Shown here in pieces: positions 55,153 through 64,000 of a DNA stretch of 64,000 bases (position 1 is the stretch's first letter; every line of letters begins with the position of its first letter). A program made the position numbers and the translations under genes. Origin of the DNA: Acidobacteriota bacterium (GTDB taxonomy: Bacteria; Acidobacteriota; UBA6911; JACQSX01); NCBI GenBank assembly GCA_036507075.1, contig DASXQR010000088.1:19784-83783 (forward strand), read 5' to 3'. The notes under the pieces are model-generated. The model searched no databases and was not told where the DNA came from. It saw nothing but the letters and a program-made list of their open reading frames with translations.

Positions 55153-55503
55153 ATGCGTCCCGCTCGAGCCGCGCGACTCTTTGCCCACCAGGCGCTCTGG
55201 CGTTACGCCCGGATGCGTCCTGCCGGGCGCGCCCTGGTGCGCGAGCTGGGTTCGCGCGACGAAGACGTGCGCACCATCGCGGCCATGTTCCTGCTCAAAA
55301 GCGGCCGCCGCTCCGCCCCGCTCCTGCTGGAAGCCCTGTCGCGCCGCCAGCATGTCCCGATGGTCCTGCGCGTGCTGGGCGACATCGGCGACCAGAAACT
55401 CGCCCCCGAACTGCAGCGCTTCACCGCCGACCCGGACCCCCGCGTCGCCCAGGCTGCCCAGGACGCCCTGCGCGTCATCGACGTCCAAGCTCCCGGCGTG
55501 TAG
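55153..55503 (+). CDS. Small HEAT-repeat protein
   Basis: DEDVRTIAA..L, VLGDIGD, DPDPRVAQAAQDAL. Confidence 0.65.
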   Translation: MRPARAARLFAHQALWRYARMRPAGRALVRELGSRDEDVRTIAAMFLLKSGRRSAPLLLEALSRRQHVPMVLRVLGDIGDQKLAPELQRFTADPDPRVAQAAQDALRVIDVQAPGV

Positions 55504-55540
55504 AGCTCCGACGTCCCGGCCATGCCGTTAATTTCGACCC

Positions 55541-55700
55541 GTAGAGACGCGATACATCGCGCCCCAATCTGAGGTGCCGCAGGCGCGGATAATTTCGAAC
55601 CGTAGGACCCGTAGAGACGCGATACATCGCGTCTGAGTTGGGCGCGATATATCGCGCCCGGCGCCGCTTTGCGGCGCCCCGGACGCGACCTGTCGCGTCC
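55541..55700. repeat. GTAG-type REP cluster downstream of RAYT
   Basis: GTAGAGACGCGATACATCGC(GTCT) at 55541 and 55611; related hairpins at 55641 and 55681. Confidence 0.85.
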
Positions 55701-55785
55701 CATCGCTGCAAAGCAGCGCTCCTGGGATTCCGGCGGCATCCGTGGACGCGAAGTATCTGACCCGGACAATCGCCATGTCGCAACC

Positions 55786-56310
55786 CTACCGCTTTCGCTT
55801 CAATTCCCACCGTTCCGGATTTCTGCCGATATACTCACGAATGTTATTCAATGACCGCTCATCGCTGATTCCCTGGTCGCGGAACCTCGGTTGCCAGTCA
55901 AAATCAGCGTATCCGTTTCGATGGCACCATCGGGTGACTGCGGCTTTATAGGAACCCATGATGACGGACAGAGAGCCGGGTTTCAGCGGACCAAAAGCGG
56001 AAACAAACGAGGGCTCTGGTGAGACAGGCGCTTTATAGCCGTTCCAAATGCCCACGGTTCCGTGAACGTGGTTAGGCATGACAATGAAGCGATCAAGAAC
56101 AACGCCGGAAAAGTGGCTGAGTATTTCCATCCAGAATTGCTCGGCTACTCTTCCCATTTGAGATAGCTGAACCTCGCCTCCAGAAACTTGCCCAAAGAAG
56201 TGCCTCCCTTGCTTGGTGCAAATGGTCACGAAGTAGCAACCGTTCAGAGAGTAGTCCCAGTTCTTTAACCGGGTCGATTCCAGTCGATATTTAGTTTCGA
56301 ACCAGGGCAT
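55786..56310 (-). CDS. REP-associated tyrosine transposase (RAYT, Y1 HUH)
   Basis: RLKNWDYS..G.YFVTICT, FIVMPNHVHG (HUH), SYKAAVT, WQ.RF.D, REYIGRNPERW; SD AGGAGG before ATG 56310. Confidence 0.92.
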   Translation of the reverse strand: MPWFETKYRLESTRLKNWDYSLNGCYFVTICTKQGRHFFGQVSGGEVQLSQMGRVAEQFWMEILSHFSGVVLDRFIVMPNHVHGTVGIWNGYKAPVSPEPSFVSAFGPLKPGSLSVIMGSYKAAVTRWCHRNGYADFDWQPRFRDQGISDERSLNNIREYIGRNPERWELKRKR

Positions 56311-56430
56311 AAAAATTCCTCCTGGCATACAAAACCCCGCAACGGTCGAATCTGCGAAAATTTCTTTCAGGAAAACGTGCTTTTTTTTGTGGAAGGCCGA
56401 CACCCATTCGTATGGACGTGACACCTGCTC

Positions 56431-56552
56431 GTAGAGACGCGACACTGTCGCGTCTGAGGCAGGCGCGATAAATCGCGCCTGGATCGCTGCTTCGCAGCGT
56501 CGGGACGCGACATGTCGCGTCCCCACTCAGACGCGACATGCCGCGTCTCTAC
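56431..56552. repeat. GTAG-type REP cluster upstream of RAYT
   Basis: GTAGAGACGCGACACTGTCGCGTCT ... AGACGCGACATGCCGCGTCTCTAC with two internal hairpins. Confidence 0.88.
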
Positions 56553-56787
56553 GGCCCGCGCGGCGAATCGGCATAATTCTCGCAACTATCCGGCTGATTT
56601 TTAAGAGCTCCGACCTGATTGGTCGGGAAAGAGGGAGACAGAGCTTTTACGCCTCTTATTGAAGCAGTTGAGCGGATGAAAGCAAGAGCCTTCGGCGGTA
56701 GCGATTCCGGCAAAAATGGAGTGGCAGACTCCAGGCCGGCGGCGTTATCTATGGCGATTTTGAGGCAGGAAGAAGAGTCCCGGGGAA

Positions 56788-57024
56788 CTAACCCGGCGAT
56801 CTGAACTCTTTCCCATCCTCATCGTACTCGACGTATTCGAAGACGCTACGCGAGTCTTGCACAACTAGCCGGCTCGGACGGTGATCCCGCGCGACGGCAA
56901 CAGCGTAGTCCTTGGCTTGACGAAAATTGTGAAACGATTGACCGGTCCGTGATCCGAGTCGAATCAACAGCCAGTTTTTACCATCGGGGAATACGTGGAA
57001 GATTGTTGGAGCTCCGACCTGCAT
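56788..57024 (-). CDS. Small DUF2188-like protein
   Basis: FHVFPDGKNW..G....SF....QA..YA...A....SRLVVQD resembles the DUF2188 pattern. Confidence 0.55.
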   Translation of the reverse strand: MQVGAPTIFHVFPDGKNWLLIRLGSRTGQSFHNFRQAKDYAVAVARDHRPSRLVVQDSRSVFEYVEYDEDGKEFRSPG

Positions 57025-57153
57025 TGATGCCTGCCTTCAGCCCCCCGCCTCCGTCGCATCCAATTCACTTGGATTGTACCGAGGATTCCGTCTCCGTCAA
57101 GATGGGCCCGTTTACTCACTATCCTCTTCTTCTTCGCGCAGATAACGCTGTTT

Positions 57154-57268
57154 AAAAAAGGGGACTGTCCCTCTTTTGGACTAGAAAAGGGGACTGTCCC
57201 CCTTTTCACCCAAAAAAAGGGACTGTCCCTCTTTTGACTGACTGAAAAAAGGGGACTGTCCCTCTTTT
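57154..57268. repeat. Four tandem palindromic units AAAAGGG(G)ACTGTCCC(T/C)CTTTT
   Basis: Direct inspection; one inverted unit at about 55084-55100. Confidence 0.85.
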
Positions 57269-57510
57269 CCTCTTTTCAATGAAAAGATTCGTGTAATTCG
57301 TGAAATTCGTGTAATTCGTGCTCAACGCCTGTTTTGGCATAACCAATACTTATTGACTGCCGGCGCTGCCTCTGATCTCAGGTCGACAAAAACGCTCTGA
57401 TTTTTCCGCCAGATTTTTGACGTTTTCTATTGACTGGTTCTGGGGGGCGATAGTATCGTCCGCGCCAGTCCTAGATATCCCGGAAAACTAAATTCAAAAC
57501 GTAGGCTTTT

Positions 57511-60435
57511 ATGCCTTTACGTTCCTTTGCGCGCAGACTGTCCACGGGTCTGCAGGTGTTCGGCCTCTTTGCCGCTACGGCGACGGCTGCCGATTCGGGA
57601 TGGATTCTGGTCGGATCGGGTCCCGCCGAAAAAGACCGCGCTGAAGTGCGCGCCTACAAACCGGACAAGACGCTGGCACTGCAGCTCTTCCCCTTTGACG
57701 ATTTCAAGAAGCCTCCCGCCATGGAAATTGCCGCCGGCGACGTCAACGGCGACGGCCGGCCCGAGCTGATCCTTGCGGGCGGCAGGCAGGACAAAAACGC
57801 GGCCGTAGTCCGGGCTTTTGACTTGAAGAAGGCCGGCATCTGGGAATTGCAGCCCTACGCGGACCTGAAAAAGGACGACGATCAGATCGCCGTTGCCGCC
57901 GGTGATCTGGACGGCGACGGCACAGACGAGCTGATCGTGGGCGAGGCATCCGACTCCAATGGCCCCAACCGGCTGCGCGTCTTCCGTTTTCAGGACGGAA
58001 GCCTCCGGCAGGCCGCCGAATTCCTGATTGCCGATCTGAAAAACATCGCCGTCGCTGCCGGCGACCTGGACGGCGACGGCAGGGCCGAAGTCCTGGTGGC
58101 CAACCTGAAAGCCGCCGGCAAAGGCGCCGACATCCGCGTGCTGCGGGCGCAGACCGAAGGCGGCTGGAAGCTGATCCAGAGCGCCTCATTCAACCCCGGC
58201 CCGGCAAAACAGGGATTCCGCATCGCGGCGGGCGACATCAACGGCGACAAAAAAGACGAAATCCTGCTGGCCTTCGAGCCAACGGGCAAGGACGATCCGT
58301 CATGCCTGGCGCTGGACGGCAGCGGAAAACTGCTACTTGCCCTGGCCGCTCCTTTCAAACACAAGAATCACCTGCGCGTCTCCGCCGTCGATCTGAATGC
58401 CGACGGCAAAGAGGAAATCCTGCTGGCCCACGTCAAGCCCGAGGGCGAAAGCGAACCCGACGACGAATCCGGTCTGGTCCGCGTGTATTCGGGCGACGGC
58501 AAGCCCTTCGGCTTTGAAGTCGGCACTTCCTTCCGGAGGGAAATCAACGTCGCCGGCCTGGGCTTTGACATCACGCCGCCCGTTCTGACGTTTTCCGAGC
58601 CGCTCAACGGCGACATCGTCCCCGCCTCGCCTCTAAAGATCAAAGGCAACGCCAGCGAGCCGCTCAAGTTCGTCCGCCTGGAAGGGGAGCCGCCGGCATC
58701 TCCGACTCCTGTGCAGGCGCTTCTTTCATCCCGAAAAGATTTCGAAGGCAATCTCCCCATCCCGAAAGCCGTCAGCCACTACAAAGTAATCGCCCAAGAC
58801 CGCTCCGGAAACGAAACCGTGGTACGGCGATCGGTGATTTACGAGGAACCGGGGCCGTTGACGGTGAAGATTACCTCGCCAGTAGCAGGAGCCGTGTTGA
58901 ATTTTGCGTCGGTCACCGTTCGAGGAATCGTAAACAAGCCCACTTCGATTGTAATCTTGAATGGAACCCGCGCCTTTCCAAATATGGATGGAAGCTTTTA
59001 TGTTCCTGCAGTTCCTGTCCAAGTAGGTGGAAACCTCATCTACGCAGTCGCCCGGGATTTTTACGGCAATAAGAGTGAAGATTTCTTAACCTTTAGCGCC
59101 GACGCGAATCTAACCTCAAATGTTCAGATAATCCCCTCGATCACCGTCGGCCAGGCACCATTAACCGTAAGTTTTCAAATCCAGATAAATCCGTCTGTAA
59201 AAGCTCTGAAGATCTTGTGGAGTCGAACAGGTGCTCCGGCGCAATCGACTCTGATGGAGTCTGTAAGTGGACTTCAGGAAACATACACTGAGCCCGGTTT
59301 CTACCGACCCATACTTCAAATACAAGATCAAAAGGGCGAAATCCATGCCAGCAGCATTTTTTTGAGTGTGCAAGATACCTATTTAGAGAGCCAGATCCTG
59401 AATACATTCGGCGCTGCAATGCGGAAGGACAGGCAAGGTCGGATCTGGGTCTTGGATTCACAAGGCACTTTTGTAGTCTGGGATCCGACAACAAGATCAA
59501 GCAAAACGATTAGGATTGCAAGTCCAAATGGCACGATTACTGGAGGAACAGCACTGGCGATTGATGAGAACGGGACTGTTTACGTGGTCGATTCGAAACA
59601 GAAAAAGATTCACGCATTCAATTCCGATGGAGTCTGGCAGAAGACTTTTGGGAACGACAAAATTACGGAACCCTCTGCGATCGCCGCTGGGGACTGCTCT
59701 CTAGATTGTAGAGTTTTTGTTGCCGATTCGAGCAGAAACTTGATCGTAGTTTTTGACAGCTCCGGTAAGTACATTGAAGAAATCGGGAGTATCGGTGACG
59801 CTACTCTCGTTAGTTTGAGTTCCCGATCTGTCAATTACACCGTTAAGACACTAGACTTTCCTCGTGCACTCCGCTCGCAGTTTGGTCTCCTCTTCATCAT
59901 GGATCGCTCTCACACTTACATGACTCTCGGCGGACATATGTCGGCTCCTTTTGTTTCAGTTCCAGCTCTTGATGTGGCTTTGCTACCAAAGCGCAGACAA
60001 TCTGCGTTACTCCTTCCCAACGGTCGCGAAATTAAAATAGTAGATGATAGAACTTTGGCCGACGTTGCACGCATAGGTCTTCATCATACGGCCCAATCTA
60101 TAGAAGCGGCTGATGAAGGCGATCGCCTTTGGTATACAGGCCCTGAGAATACGTTTGAAGTCGCGTTCAAAGGGGAGGACCCTCGGTCAGCCGTTGAGAG
60201 ATTCCTGAAAAGCTGGCAAGAAGGTGACCTCCAAGCGGCGGCGGAACTCATATCTGTCCATGGTTATCATCGGGTTTATCCGGTACTGCTTAGCCCGATT
60301 AAAGTCTTTAGAATGGAAACTGGCTTCGACATGAATGGTGACACTGTAAGTATTCGGGTTGTCATAGACGGAGAGCCGCGGGTGATCAGTATTTCCAAGG
60401 ATGAGGCGAATCACTGGAGCATTTATGATTTATGA
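57511..60435 (+). CDS. Secreted multidomain protein: FG-GAP-like repeats, Ig-like and PKD-like domains, NHL-like propeller, small C-terminal domain
   Basis: Five GDxxGDGxxE-type motifs; DITPPVL..P..G and ITSPV.GA Ig-like units; GQAPLTVSF..YTEPG.Y (PKD-like); LAIDENGTVYVVDS and VFVADS (NHL-like). Confidence 0.75.
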   Translation: MPLRSFARRLSTGLQVFGLFAATATAADSGWILVGSGPAEKDRAEVRAYKPDKTLALQLFPFDDFKKPPAMEIAAGDVNGDGRPELILAGGRQDKNAAVVRAFDLKKAGIWELQPYADLKKDDDQIAVAAGDLDGDGTDELIVGEASDSNGPNRLRVFRFQDGSLRQAAEFLIADLKNIAVAAGDLDGDGRAEVLVANLKAAGKGADIRVLRAQTEGGWKLIQSASFNPGPAKQGFRIAAGDINGDKKDEILLAFEPTGKDDPSCLALDGSGKLLLALAAPFKHKNHLRVSAVDLNADGKEEILLAHVKPEGESEPDDESGLVRVYSGDGKPFGFEVGTSFRREINVAGLGFDITPPVLTFSEPLNGDIVPASPLKIKGNASEPLKFVRLEGEPPASPTPVQALLSSRKDFEGNLPIPKAVSHYKVIAQDRSGNETVVRRSVIYEEPGPLTVKITSPVAGAVLNFASVTVRGIVNKPTSIVILNGTRAFPNMDGSFYVPAVPVQVGGNLIYAVARDFYGNKSEDFLTFSADANLTSNVQIIPSITVGQAPLTVSFQIQINPSVKALKILWSRTGAPAQSTLMESVSGLQETYTEPGFYRPILQIQDQKGEIHASSIFLSVQDTYLESQILNTFGAAMRKDRQGRIWVLDSQGTFVVWDPTTRSSKTIRIASPNGTITGGTALAIDENGTVYVVDSKQKKIHAFNSDGVWQKTFGNDKITEPSAIAAGDCSLDCRVFVADSSRNLIVVFDSSGKYIEEIGSIGDATLVSLSSRSVNYTVKTLDFPRALRSQFGLLFIMDRSHTYMTLGGHMSAPFVSVPALDVALLPKRRQSALLLPNGREIKIVDDRTLADVARIGLHHTAQSIEAADEGDRLWYTGPENTFEVAFKGEDPRSAVERFLKSWQEGDLQAAAELISVHGYHRVYPVLLSPIKVFRMETGFDMNGDTVSIRVVIDGEPRVISISKDEANHWSIYDL

Positions 60436-60476
60436 AGCTGGCGCTGATGTCTTAATTCAACGAACTTAATCTGAGT

Positions 60477-60866
60477 ATGATTCTCTTTAGCTATACGGCC
60501 GCCCTGATAGTTCTCACGGTCTTTTGTATTCTGCCGAGCATGGTTTTATGGGCATTGTTGCGCATAAAACGAGATCTCTTAAGTGCTGTGAAGCTGATCT
60601 CTGGAGTGACTGCTTTGTTTGTGCTCGAGTATTTCTTTGGCCTCTGGCTAATCGCCCGCCTCATAGATCCCTATGTCGCAGTATTTGCTTCGCAGAACAT
60701 TAACCTATTCACTTGCCTCTGGCTCGCTTCGTGGATGTTAAACGCTCCCGCAAAAGTCAGACGCTATTGGGTGATATTTTGGTTCCTTATCCTACTGATT
60801 CCCGGTGGCTACTGGACTTTTACTTCAATTAACGACTTTGCTGGCCGTTTTCAAACGTACAGGTGA
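60477..60866 (+). CDS. Small four-helix membrane protein
   Basis: 129 aa, almost entirely hydrophobic, lower GC than the window. Confidence 0.7.
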   Translation: MILFSYTAALIVLTVFCILPSMVLWALLRIKRDLLSAVKLISGVTALFVLEYFFGLWLIARLIDPYVAVFASQNINLFTCLWLASWMLNAPAKVRRYWVIFWFLILLIPGGYWTFTSINDFAGRFQTYR

Positions 60867-63800
60867 TCGGCATACCGGTTTTGGGCTCGTTGTCGAGTGC
60901 GAAGAGGAAGGCCGTCTGGAGGTGTAGGGCCTCCGCATGCTTCATTCTCCTTCTGCTTGGAGCGGGAAATTCACTTGTGGCCTGGGACCAACTTCACGGG
61001 CACAAACAAATGAGTTCCTATTGTGTGCGTATTTCCAACTTTTTTAGGATAAGGCTGGAAGCATGGGGTGTAGGTGAACGAGGATTTGCTGAAGCCATAG
61101 TCTCAGGATCAGTGGCGGAGGATGAGGCGCCAAGATTTTTAAATCATTTTCACAATCCTCTCCAATCTGAGGAGGCCGCTGGTTCCATCGGAAACTCCGC
61201 TCTTCGTTGGGCTAGGGGAGATATTCCCAGCAACCAGTGGTCTTACAAGGTCAGTAAAGAGTACTTATATGATGGATTGACCAATTTCTCTGCTAGTAAA
61301 AGAAATCTGGCGCTGCAGAAAACGTTCCGAGGCATTGGGCAGGTTATTCATCTAATCCAGGACTTAGCGCAACCAGAACACTCCAGGAACGACTTGCATC
61401 CACTATCAGGCGGATCCTTCAGTTTCTTCGGCTTCGGCATTCCACCGGATCCGCTGGAATTTGATCATTGGTTGGCTACGAATGTCTCTCTCATAGACGA
61501 ATTTGGTGCTTCAGTCACGCAGCCGAAGAAGTTCAAGAAAAAGTCAATCTCAATCTTCTTTGATAGTAGGCAATATTTTAGCGGATCGATCGTGGACCCC
61601 GCGGAAGCTGGAGCGTCAGAAATTTCGAACAGCAACTGTCTCACGCTGGACAGTTACCCTTATTCGATTACTCGAAATGGATTGGTTCTCGGGCGCAGAT
61701 TGCGACGGATAGATAAGAAAGACACCTTTCCACATCCCGCATTGGCGGACTCGAACGAGCCTGACCTAATGAACCGAAATCCCAGTTATCGAGCTTGGGA
61801 TGAGAGCGACTCGAAATTAGACAGCTACGTGGAGATTGTTAGGACTTCTGATAGAGGGAAAGTGGCTCGTGTACGCTACTACCCCAGTCTGACTGACAAT
61901 GCATCTGTACAGGATAAGCTGAACGGAAAATCTGTACTTCCTTGGACGTTAAGCGAGGCAGTTAATCGAGAATACGCAAAAGTCCTGATCCCCCTCGCCA
62001 TCTCCTATGGCGCCGGAGTCCTTGACTTCTTCCTTCGGGGCTCCCTTGACCTGGACGTCCTGGAATGCGGTGAGGACGGTTTTCTGGTGTTTCGCAATAC
62101 TTCGGATGAATCTCTGAACGGCAAATTTCAGCTCTTCTACGACGACGAGCAGGAGAACAGGACAGAGATTGGAGTTCAGGAGGGCTCGCGGTTTGGCGCC
62201 TACGTGCTCGGGCCCAGTGTCGACAGCCAGATCTTTCGCTTCACGGTGCCTGCGCCCTACGACAGCAACAAGAAACAGGGCAGATACATGCTCGTGTTCA
62301 AGGGCCGATTGGGAGAGGAAGACGACTACGTCATGGGTCGTTACGCCAGGGCCACCGAATGCGACTTCGAGCTGGCGGCAACTCCGAGTTATCAAAAGAT
62401 TCTGCGGCGCGGATCCGGAAGCCTTGTTAACAACGTGAAGCTGAAAGCAGTGCTCCCGCCCAAATTCGCAGCGCTGAAAATCGACGAGCTTGTAAAAAAG
62501 AAGAAGGTGCAGTGGGCCCTGTCAGGACCGGACATCGCGCTGTCGGATCAGGAACCGGTAAACCCAAACGCGAATTTCTCCACCGTGAGCCTGAACAGTG
62601 TCGGAATCTACAAGGCTTCTGATTTCCGGCTCACCAACGAAGCCCGGAAGACGGTGGCAAGCAGCGCGACATTCGCCAATATCCAGGTGGTCGACGACGA
62701 CCCCAGGCCTCCCACTTCGCCCAAGCCCAAACCGGTTCCGGGCGACAACACCGTCTATACCTGGACCAACACGCTTTGCACCGAGTGTCCCGACGTCATT
62801 ACCTACGCGCGCCGCGGTATTCCGAAGCTGGGCGCAATCAGCACCGGCAGATTCTCCTCCTGGTGGCCGCTCGGTCCGGGAGGCGGCAACGGTTTGGCTG
62901 AGTTCCGCAGCATGGACTGGACCTCTTTCCTTTCTCCCTATGGTCCGACGCTTTGCGTTCTGGCGCTTTCGGGAACTCTTGCTTTTCAAGGCCAGGATCT
63001 CGAACTTCATATGCAGGTCTTTGCTCCGCCCGGCAACAATCTTGGAAATGTGCGCGTGGTCTTCTCCAGTCCCACAGATCTGAGTGTCACGGGCGTCGGC
63101 ATATCCAAGATGTTCGAAGTGGAAGGAAATCGTTTCGCTGAAATTCCTGTTTCCAGCGCGTTGGAGCCGGCAAAAGACATCGGCTTTCGCGTGCGCGCGC
63201 CCACTACCGGAATCAAGCCCTTCACGCTGGATATTACCGGAGACACCCTTTCTCAAGCGGATCCCTCGCAAAAAGGCGTTTTTGGTCCGATGCAGATCAA
63301 CAGCACCGTGGAAATCTCCAAACCCGAGCTCACCCTTGGCCTCAGCTTCAGCGATGATCTTCTCGACGCCGGCTCGCCGTTTGGTCTGACGACGACTGTC
63401 TTCAACGCGCCGCGTTCCGGAGCCACGGCCTTCAATACAGCCATCGCCGTGCAGGCAGATTCCACGGCGTCACTGGTCGGAAAGTCCACGGCCGCGCTGG
63501 GCAACATCGCTCCCGGCGAAGCGCGCTCCGCCGATTTTCAGTTCATCTCCGGCCGCACCGGAGCGGTACAAGGCGCCACTGCCCGCGCCAGCGCGGGACT
63601 GAACGTGGAAGTCAGCGTTGCGGGGAAAAGAGCATTCCCTCCGATTTATCCGATTCAAGGCTCGGCCGGACTGACCGCCCTGCGCGCGCAGGCGCCCGAT
63701 CTTGCGGCTCGCTCGATGGAGATGCTCGGGATGATTTACGGTGACGGCGTGGGCCGCGGCGACGGCATGGAAAAGTCCACCGTGATTGCCCGCAGCCAGG

Positions 63801-64000
63801 GACTTCACACTGCCGGATACCGCCTGCTTGCCGGTGAGATGCTGCAGGCAGTCCTGCCCGATCTGATTCTCGATCTTGGCATCGGCACAGTCACCCATCC
63901 CGAATACGACTACGCCCGCAGAAACTACCCCGCCGGCAAACTGTGGCGCGACGCGATGAACCAATCCCTTCAATCCGCGTCTTTAGCGCCATCCGCGGCC
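60863..64000 (+). CDS. Partial >1040-aa secreted protein with N-terminal Zn-dependent phospholipase C / P1-nuclease-like domain and Ig-like C-terminal region
   Basis: Manual translation from GTG 60863 finds no stop to the window end. Signal peptide CFILLLLGAGNSLVA is followed by W(60983)DQLHGH, then EDE.PRFLNHFHNP, GQVIHLIQDLAQPEHSRNDLH and YAKVLIPLAISYGAGVLDFFLRG. Confidence 0.8.
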   Translation, partial: MIGIPVLGSLSSAKRKAVWRCRASACFILLLLGAGNSLVAWDQLHGHKQMSSYCVRISNFFRIRLEAWGVGERGFAEAIVSGSVAEDEAPRFLNHFHNPLQSEEAAGSIGNSALRWARGDIPSNQWSYKVSKEYLYDGLTNFSASKRNLALQKTFRGIGQVIHLIQDLAQPEHSRNDLHPLSGGSFSFFGFGIPPDPLEFDHWLATNVSLIDEFGASVTQPKKFKKKSISIFFDSRQYFSGSIVDPAEAGASEISNSNCLTLDSYPYSITRNGLVLGRRLRRIDKKDTFPHPALADSNEPDLMNRNPSYRAWDESDSKLDSYVEIVRTSDRGKVARVRYYPSLTDNASVQDKLNGKSVLPWTLSEAVNREYAKVLIPLAISYGAGVLDFFLRGSLDLDVLECGEDGFLVFRNTSDESLNGKFQLFYDDEQENRTEIGVQEGSRFGAYVLGPSVDSQIFRFTVPAPYDSNKKQGRYMLVFKGRLGEEDDYVMGRYARATECDFELAATPSYQKILRRGSGSLVNNVKLKAVLPPKFAALKIDELVKKKKVQWALSGPDIALSDQEPVNPNANFSTVSLNSVGIYKASDFRLTNEARKTVASSATFANIQVVDDDPRPPTSPKPKPVPGDNTVYTWTNTLCTECPDVITYARRGIPKLGAISTGRFSSWWPLGPGGGNGLAEFRSMDWTSFLSPYGPTLCVLALSGTLAFQGQDLELHMQVFAPPGNNLGNVRVVFSSPTDLSVTGVGISKMFEVEGNRFAEIPVSSALEPAKDIGFRVRAPTTGIKPFTLDITGDTLSQADPSQKGVFGPMQINSTVEISKPELTLGLSFSDDLLDAGSPFGLTTTVFNAPRSGATAFNTAIAVQADSTASLVGKSTAALGNIAPGEARSADFQFISGRTGAVQGATARASAGLNVEVSVAGKRAFPPIYPIQGSAGLTALRAQAPDLAARSMEMLGMIYGDGVGRGDGMEKSTVIARSQGLHTAGYRLLAGEMLQAVLPDLILDLGIGTVTHPEYDYARRNYPAGKLWRDAMNQSLQSASLAPSAA

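Follow-up and report, generated by a model that had tools for sequence, protein, structure and literature searches.

A putative Sec-exported toxin-immunity operon of reversed polarity, with an N-terminal enzyme domain of phospholipase C fold, in an Acidobacteriota bacterium

In this study we analysed a stretch of 64,000 nucleotides from an Acidobacteriota bacterium (assembly GCA_036507075.1, contig DASXQR010000088.1, positions 19,784 to 83,783 of the forward strand), which as a whole is referred to as the window. Its last part holds three genes, here named A, B and C, which probably form a Sec-exported polymorphic toxin-immunity operon of reversed polarity, gene C encoding a putative toxin with a phospholipase C (PLC)-type target. 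The window genome is called G000 and its contig C88; P numbers denote database proteins, L numbers loci and X1 to X3 sequencing runs. The window ends where contig C88 ends, and it contains the following features:

57511 to 60435, plus strand: gene A, exported partner protein of 974 amino acids (aa) with FG-GAP repeats, Ig, Glucodextran_B Ig, PKD-like, NHL propeller and NTF2-like C-terminal domain (Pfam scan)
58864 to 59397, plus strand: conserved Ig (Glucodextran_B) and PKD core of the A family, with the left breakpoint in GC content at third codon positions (GC3) at the core start (Pfam, GC3 fit, family profile)
60172 to 60432, plus strand: NTF2-like C-terminal domain of A, corresponding by position, though divergent, to the terminal domain of the A family (model on the family alignment)
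60477 to 60866, plus strand: gene B, hydrophobic, 129 aa, 3-4 hydrophobic segments, by position a predicted immunity protein (open reading frame (ORF), slot comparison)
60863 to 60982, plus strand: predicted signal peptide of gene C; cleavage between A40 and W41 would free the N-terminal metal ligand (sequence)
60983 to 62032, plus strand: enzyme domain of Zn-PLC/S1-P1 fold with W41, H47, D87, H95, H163, D167, H173, H179 and D201 (AlphaFold2 (AF2) model, structure matches, conservation)
61985 to 62017, plus strand: LIPLAISYGAG helix (LIPRAVGYSAG in the family), right-hand crossover anchor (GC3 breakpoint 61982, identity resumption in locus pairs)
62039 to 62350, plus strand: conserved Ig/FnIII-like beta-sandwich domain behind the enzyme (model residues 353-456, Z about 8, conserved columns)
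62351 to 64000, plus strand: start of a stalk of ~3,400 aa with Ig-like and CarboxypepD_reg repeats, running past the contig end (P0171, P0169)
58879 to 61982, no strand: low-GC, codon-atypical block, the incoming cassette of the 3' half of A, B and the enzyme domain of C (GC3 fit, codon usage)

Gene C starts with the GTG at 60863, overlaps the stop of gene B by 4 nt and stays open to the window end. A first-pass annotation of this DNA, made from the letters alone, had reported a signal peptide and metal-site motifs in this frame, and they are indeed there: W41, H47, NHFH (residues 94-97) and HLIQD..H.RND.H (163-179). It had also remarked that the ORF track missed the enzyme, and the database gene call on C88, P0001 (713 aa), likewise begins at residue 334 and lacks the enzyme domain.

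The AF2 model of the enzyme domain, built on 97 sequences (predicted local distance difference test (pLDDT) 82.9, predicted template modelling score (pTM) 0.88), has the PLC/P1 fold that the annotation had expected. It superposes on Bacillus cereus PLC (1ah7) with Z 18.7 and a root-mean-square deviation (rmsd) of 2.8 over 203 residues, on Listeria PLC (8cqm) and C. absonum alpha-toxin with Z 18.1 each, and on S1/P1 nucleases with Z 12.8-14.1, the highest being S1 nuclease 5fb9 (14.1). Six PLC/P1 entries lie at Z 12.8-18.7; the next structural match reaches only 8.6. The sole PDB match of the family profile is the Listeria PLC 8cqm (E 1.5e-5). Identity to Zn-PLC/S1-P1 structures is about 15%, with long insertions. 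The nuclease matches would also suit the same toxin-immunity system with an enzyme that is an S1/P1-type nuclease or another phosphoesterase, acting for example on lipid carriers, and the distance of 5-6 residues between residue 1 and the first His resembles the S1/P1 spacing more than that of B. cereus PLC. Nevertheless we consider this quite improbable: the Z scores to PLCs are higher, the only profile match is a PLC, and the most common type of B protein, B1, has an N-terminal hydrophobic segment in 43/47 cases and would not guard cytoplasmic DNA.

The predicted ligand columns hardly vary among 153 homologues: H47 is found in 144/144, D87 in 150/150, H95 in 151/151, H163, D167 and H173 in 153/153 and H179 in 151/153, and the column of R175 is likewise invariant or nearly so. 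Judged from the alignment, a His/Asp/Glu ligand set for three zinc ions appears to be in place. A mature-start pattern, in which a small residue is followed by Y/W/L/F 5-6 positions before the first His, occurs in the window and in 53/57 full homologues, and cleavage of the signal peptide would presumably free the mature N-terminus in the window as well as in the family. In S1 nuclease zinc is bound by the main chain of the N-terminus once the signal has been cleaved off (PMC5201275). With this precedent, an enzyme domain whose N-terminal residue serves as zinc ligand must be both N-terminal and exported.

A Pfam scan of gene C gave no match to Zn_dep_PLPC (PF00882), and PF00882 matched only weakly in 8/47 homologues (best E 3.7e-4, printed scores below the 26.8-bit gathering cut-off). 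Searching gene C as a single sequence against PDB, Pfam, NCBIfam and PADLOC returned nothing useful. In the Atlas, gene C matched unnamed clusters at 0.90-0.91 and PF00882 only at 0.84. A 1,005-residue query gave matches to 3,392 clusters (formed at 50% identity) with E values no higher than 1e-3, and 148 of the best 150 match its N-terminal module. The top Atlas clusters also point to short stand-alone enzyme forms in Minisyncoccota, and P0008 (1,214 aa) joins a shortened enzyme domain, lacking the beta domain, to lamin-tail and beta-helix domains.

In species-representative genomes a scan confirmed 376 stretches. The counts of operon loci given here rest on the best 80, which belong mostly to Nitrospirota, Thermodesulfobacteriota, Methylomirabilota, Burkholderiales and Planctomycetota. 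An A-family gene lies upstream of the enzyme in 55/57 loci with at least 1,500 bp upstream; its architecture is a variable N-terminus, a Glucodextran_B Ig domain, PKD and a terminal domain of ~105 aa. Residues 447-629 of the window's A match the profile of 55 A-family genes with 79 bits, and the NHL propeller insertion is unique to this protein (0/54 other full A homologues). The terminal domain of A, modelled on the family alignment (pLDDT 70.5), is NTF2-like with 3f40 as best natural match (Z 8.1, rmsd 2.6 over 84 residues); its sequence match to the family profile was not significant, as 72/1000 shuffles scored as high. Directly before the enzyme a small gene is present in 57/64 loci with at least 900 bp upstream, 53 encoding B1 and 4 a protein with several transmembrane (TM) segments. 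B1 proteins are exported and CarboxypepD_reg-like, the small proteins with 3-5 TM segments occupy the slot in L033, L080, L089 and L092, and a third type, a TolB-like propeller, fills it in L066 and accompanies B1 in L051 and L069, so that three unrelated protein types occur in the B slot. In a quick tree the TM-type B genes accompany particular enzyme clades. The window's B has no Pfam match and shares at best 25% identity over 56 aa with the TM-type B proteins.

Comparison of related loci points to the unit that is exchanged. The DNA of L090 and L096 is 94.5% identical until about 85 codons before the A end, unalignable for about 1.9 kb and then 98.2% identical, with identity restarting at the LxPxA/xGYSA motif. 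Their beta domains are 95% and their tails 100% identical, as opposed to 37% for the enzyme, 25% for B and 39% for the A end. In L041/L071, L027/L079 and L035/L038 identity stops 60-90 residues before the A end and resumes at profile columns 324-325. The right-hand resumption lies at the LIPRAVGY helix in four pairs and also against P0169, an orthologue of 3,879 aa, to which gene C is 40% identical inside the block (132/333) and 69% (88/127) and 64% (349/546) identical after it. The converse, one and the same cassette lying between unrelated outer halves, was found in L036/L065 and in L098/L027, where identity is 62% in the A end, 57% in B, 58% in the enzyme and 26% in the tail. Tails and A N-termini are exchanged as well, for example in L035/L038 (beta domain 78%, tail 23%). 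B identity correlates with enzyme identity (Spearman 0.54) more than with beta-domain identity (0.26), over 861 non-independent pairs. These alignments show that related loci exchange a block comprising the end of A, B and the enzyme domain, between anchors in A and in the LIPRAVGY helix. Fast divergence without recombination was ruled out by the L090/L096 pattern and by a 100% identical patch in L089.

The conserved outer halves and variable middles that the annotation had anticipated for homologous loci are thus found, for example in L090/L096 and against P0169. Its proposal of an immunity-plus-effector cassette holds in so far as the cassette is exchanged as a unit, with gene B as the immunity slot. 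The possibility that the A end is itself an immunity protein gained no support: the terminal domain is present with every B type, although the last 60-90 residues of A travel with the cassette.

In the window the same block is visible in base composition. When GC3 was fitted with two changepoints along all 2,151 codons of A, B and C, the changes fell at 58879 (two-log-likelihood interval 58681-58948) and 61982 (61970-61997), close to the ~58870 and ~61980 that had been estimated by eye. GC3 is 0.75 before, 0.49 inside and 0.70 after the block, with a log-likelihood ratio of 60 compared to a maximum of 12.5 in 100 shuffles. The block covers the A end, B and the enzyme as had been described, except that its right edge lies inside the last helix of the enzyme (residue 374, V/LIPLAISY) and not past the domain; this is the column of the pair crossovers. 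The left breakpoint is further upstream than in the pairs, at the start of the conserved Ig domain. Compared with 2,835 crudely called G000 genes, codon usage in the block falls on the 0.4th percentile, as opposed to the 99th for A 1-456, the 78th for C 374-500 and the 89th for C 501-1046. By codon usage the outer halves therefore look native, as had been proposed, although across the family they vary too. Family-wide, GC at fourfold degenerate sites (GC4) is lower in the enzyme part than in the beta domain in 53/57 loci; this dip is not specific, as the loci are related and tails, too, are lower (44/52). Inside the stalk GC3 drops a second time over a short stretch (0.50-0.57 at 62900-63080), where identity to P0169 goes down to 38-55%; possibly this is another recombined patch.

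A contig from run X1, possibly the source sample, covers 57297-64000 with zero differences, and contigs from X2, a second study, bridge both breakpoints (58760-59387 and 60463-62584). Hence the block is not a mis-assembly, and a chimera was ruled out. X3 (depth about 3) contains pieces of both outer halves and nothing in 58913-62223; a rough Poisson estimate for this gap is about 0.01 (8 listed pieces), no contig joins across it, and it was not used as evidence. In X2 and X3 a low-depth variant of the 5' end of gene A (window 57696-57888) has 23 differences in 193 bases, which indicates that a relative with a similar A N-terminus is present in those samples.

Orphan cassettes were found in 8/80 loci (L028, L031, L034, L038, L080, L082, L089, L105) as a truncated enzyme gene upstream of a complete B-C pair. 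The orphan's own B is visible in 6/8; the contigs of L028 and L031 begin within the fragment. Orphan B genes are full-length and their enzyme partners truncated. The fragments of L080 and L089 run into A-end remnants and have patches in which their DNA is 88-100% identical to the complete gene; in L105 and L089 patches are 97.7-100% identical. No orphan cassette was found in the window or elsewhere in G000 (genome 95.7% complete), nor a second copy of the module. At the level of sequence, the recombination and the orphans are those expected of polymorphic toxins. In L103 (8692-9615) an IS-like transposase interrupts the PLC gene, and the upstream B1 is intact.

How B could protect was modelled for a homologue, the L048 enzyme module with its B1. 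The complex reached an ipSAE of 0.86 compared to 0.00 for the best control, a contact agreement between runs of at least 91% and a partner pLDDT of at least 87; the ipSAE mark is reached by 116/157 solved complexes and 2/215 mismatched pairs, calibration counts that hold only roughly with own alignments. All confident contacts fall in residues 2-222, which is the swapped part, and they include six predicted metal-ligand positions (D60, H77, D176, H182, H188, E210). B1 has no significant sequence relative in the PDB (best E 0.08), so that recall of a solved pair is unlikely, though not excluded. The model supports a placement of B1 over the active site of the L048 enzyme. For the window, B is predicted to be the immunity protein by its position, as it is a membrane protein unrelated to this B1.

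The L048 complex would suit a self-inhibitor equally well. On such an account the enzyme is a secreted, surface-displayed scavenging phosphodiesterase, releasing phosphorus from phospholipid or nucleic acid; B is an inhibitor or chaperone guarding only the producer's own envelope, swaps alter the substrate range and orphans are debris. The Sec signal and the lack of a linked injection system fit this as well, and the propellers and Ig domains of tails and A N-termini are typical of binding modules. It leaves unexplained, however, why orphan B genes are full-length while their enzyme partners are truncated, why two alleles on one trunk (L090/L096) differ so strongly in enzyme and B despite conserved ligand columns, and why three unrelated B types share the slot. 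We regard it as unlikely.

Gene C has a full length of about 3,874 aa. P0171, from another assembly, is identical to it over 869 aa and adds 2,828 aa; the stalk contains 11 CarboxypepD_reg stretches. In the family the tails behind the enzyme module fall into 73 unconnected groups among 145 proteins, and the few with Pfam matches are propellers, FG-GAP or other repeats. As clostridial alpha-toxins are the top Foldseek matches of the enzyme model, the protein might be thought an anti-eukaryote phospholipase, directed at protists or fungi and built like these toxins from an enzyme and a C-terminal beta domain, with B for self-protection; Tox-HET-C uses the same fold (PMC3482391). The beta domain, however, matches Ig/FnIII folds, and an arms race with eukaryotes leaves allele-matched B genes and orphan B arrays unexplained, which makes this very unlikely.

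P0040 (4,449 aa) and gene C have the stalk in common (29% over 449 aa, starting at C residue 615), but the N-terminal region of P0040 resembles an S8 subtilase and a PLC domain is absent, which indicates that different enzymes can be joined to the giant stalk at its N-terminal side. We ruled out that a foreign block had been inserted into a single ancestral giant gene, made of the FG-GAP half and the stalk half, since P0040 has the stalk and nothing of A and since P0169 has enzyme, beta domain and stalk in one gene. Distant stalk relatives in genomes of the same phylum (L017-L026 in G408, G349, G270, G315, G070, G305 and G114) are secreted proteins of 2,000-5,000 aa, which in six of these loci follow immediately after another giant gene; none was seen to have a PLC module. 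A metagenome scan for the stalk gave nothing useful.

The module occurs in only 2/61 relatives and 2/137 class genomes, G000 included. A scan with the A N-terminus found 11 generic FG-GAP loci, all without the operon, and searches of viral contigs and plasmids gave nothing useful. An A homologue in L041 (3370-7119) has a transglutaminase-like core in its variable N-terminal part, hence A can also bear an enzyme domain. In three Nitrospirota loci a protein of ~2,000 aa with CARDB and an alpha-alpha toroid (squalene-cyclase-like/TED) follows the operon (L041:10387-17206, L048:3372-8773, L072:10629-17221). Just upstream of gene A in the window, a Y1_Tnp-like gene (55786-56526, minus strand, weak Pfam match, E 0.044) is flanked by short repeats (55500-57330); the motifs at 57157-57262 and 57288-57320 have 34 and 70 occurrences in G000, and the arrangement resembles a RAYT/REP locus.

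We propose that the operon works as a toxin-immunity system in the following way. Gene C would be exported, and signal cleavage would free residue 1 and complete a trinuclear zinc site. If residue 1 completes the site, the enzyme would be inactive in the cytoplasm and would need an N-terminal position. The enzyme would most likely hydrolyse a phosphodiester in the envelope of competing bacteria, probably of a membrane phospholipid because the PLC match is closer and every B type is extracytoplasmic. B would protect the producer and its kin, B1 by plugging the active site as in the model, and the window's membrane-type B by some route. A may be exported together with C as a partner, its end varying in step with the enzyme. 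Specificity would change when the end of A, B and the enzyme domain are replaced by recombination between the two anchors, and a one-sided event would strand the other B, together with a truncated enzyme gene, as orphans on the upstream side. The lower-GC cassette of the window would have come to its native giant stalk by a double crossover that left no orphan behind, and the stalk might display the enzyme.

Several observations weigh against this interpretation. Enzymes of the PLC and S1/P1 kind often serve in scavenging or against eukaryotes. By the rule used, 7/64 loci lack B; four of them can be explained (B1 fused in the ORF calls of L050 and L099, the propeller type in L066, the interrupted gene in L103), three cannot (L058, L076, L093). 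The window's B shows no significant homology to B1. No delivery machinery recurs beside the operon, and no flanking family is found in more than 5/80 loci. Column 201 is Glu in 152/153 homologues and Asp in the window, as it is in P0169. Finally, L090 and L096 come from one Geobacteraceae metagenome-assembled genome (MAG) and may be co-binned strains.

A bolder version is possible, though we hold it to be doubtful. In it A and C together would be a stand-alone Sec-exported antibacterial weapon comprising thousands of sequence clusters in Nitrospirota, Desulfobacterota-related bacteria, Methylomirabilota and others, most of them uncultured. The chemistry of the warhead, with residue 1 as a metal ligand, would force the reversed polarity, and three modules would be exchanged independently: the N-terminal binding module of A, the warhead-plus-immunity cassette and the tail of C. 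The window's 3,400-residue stalk would then carry a contact-dependent toxin displayed at its tip, back to front compared to CdiA, on a stalk family that elsewhere bears an S8 peptidase (P0040). On either version, if toxicity holds, the operons would represent a large, apparently undescribed toxin family with at least three unrelated immunity families. They might also explain chemically why toxin polarity is inverted, give environmental lineages that are hard to culture a mechanism of interbacterial conflict, and supply natural inhibitors that act at the active site of PLC-fold enzymes. A natural allelic series for studying cognate specificity and the protective value of orphan immunity is available in L090/L096, L041/L071 and the L080 and L082 orphan arrays.

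In the literature searched, with most subscription journals and the full supplementary tables of PMC3482391 outside the search, we found neither this combination nor the family nor the B proteins. With the Zn-PLC/S1-P1 superfamily the enzyme shares the helical fold, the His/Asp ligand columns and, if the predicted signal peptide is cleaved, a mature N-terminal residue; it differs in that the family lies below the PF00882 cut-off, is fused to an Ig domain and variable tails and is encoded with a co-swapped B gene. Like CDI, Rhs and Tox-HET-C polymorphic toxins (Zhang et al. 2012, PMC3482391), the system has a putative toxin domain recombined on a conserved trunk, a neighbouring predicted immunity gene and orphan cassettes. 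The toxin domain HET-C also has this PLC/P1 fold (PMC3482391); the table of that paper names no immunity protein for Tox-HET-C, and Pfam scans of gene C and 47 homologues listed no Het-C family (no direct profile-profile comparison was made). Unlike in CDI and Rhs, the enzyme is N-terminal, immunity gene and orphans lie upstream, the cassette is bounded by two genes, and the same fold is re-used with new alleles instead of unrelated toxins. As the operon lacks the C-terminal toxin of CDI and Rhs, we do not file it with them. The opposite polarity noted in the first-pass annotation is borne out, with the enzyme at residues 41-390 and B upstream. This is unusual, but an N-terminal enzymatic effector domain with an upstream immunity gene is known from the X-T4SS of Xanthomonadales (PMC6759196). 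X-T4SS effectors (X-Tfe) have a C-terminal XVIPCD recognised in the cytoplasm (PMC6759196), the recognising protein being VirD4, whereas here a Sec signal is predicted, a third gene A is present and the cassette is exchanged within genes; no XVIPCD family is listed for P0171 or P0169, and the predicted Sec signal argues against an X-Tfe. The effector-immunity modules of the Vibrio cholerae T6SS (Kirchberger et al. 2017, PMC5361080) are similarly replaced by homologous recombination, with one-sided, homology-facilitated illegitimate events building immunity arrays, and there too the module includes the 3' end of the gene upstream. Here, by contrast, the gene order is the mirror image, signal peptides are present and no T6SS genes recur beside the operon; and while the breakpoints vary in V. 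cholerae (PMC5361080), the right-hand crossover in our loci recurs at one column.

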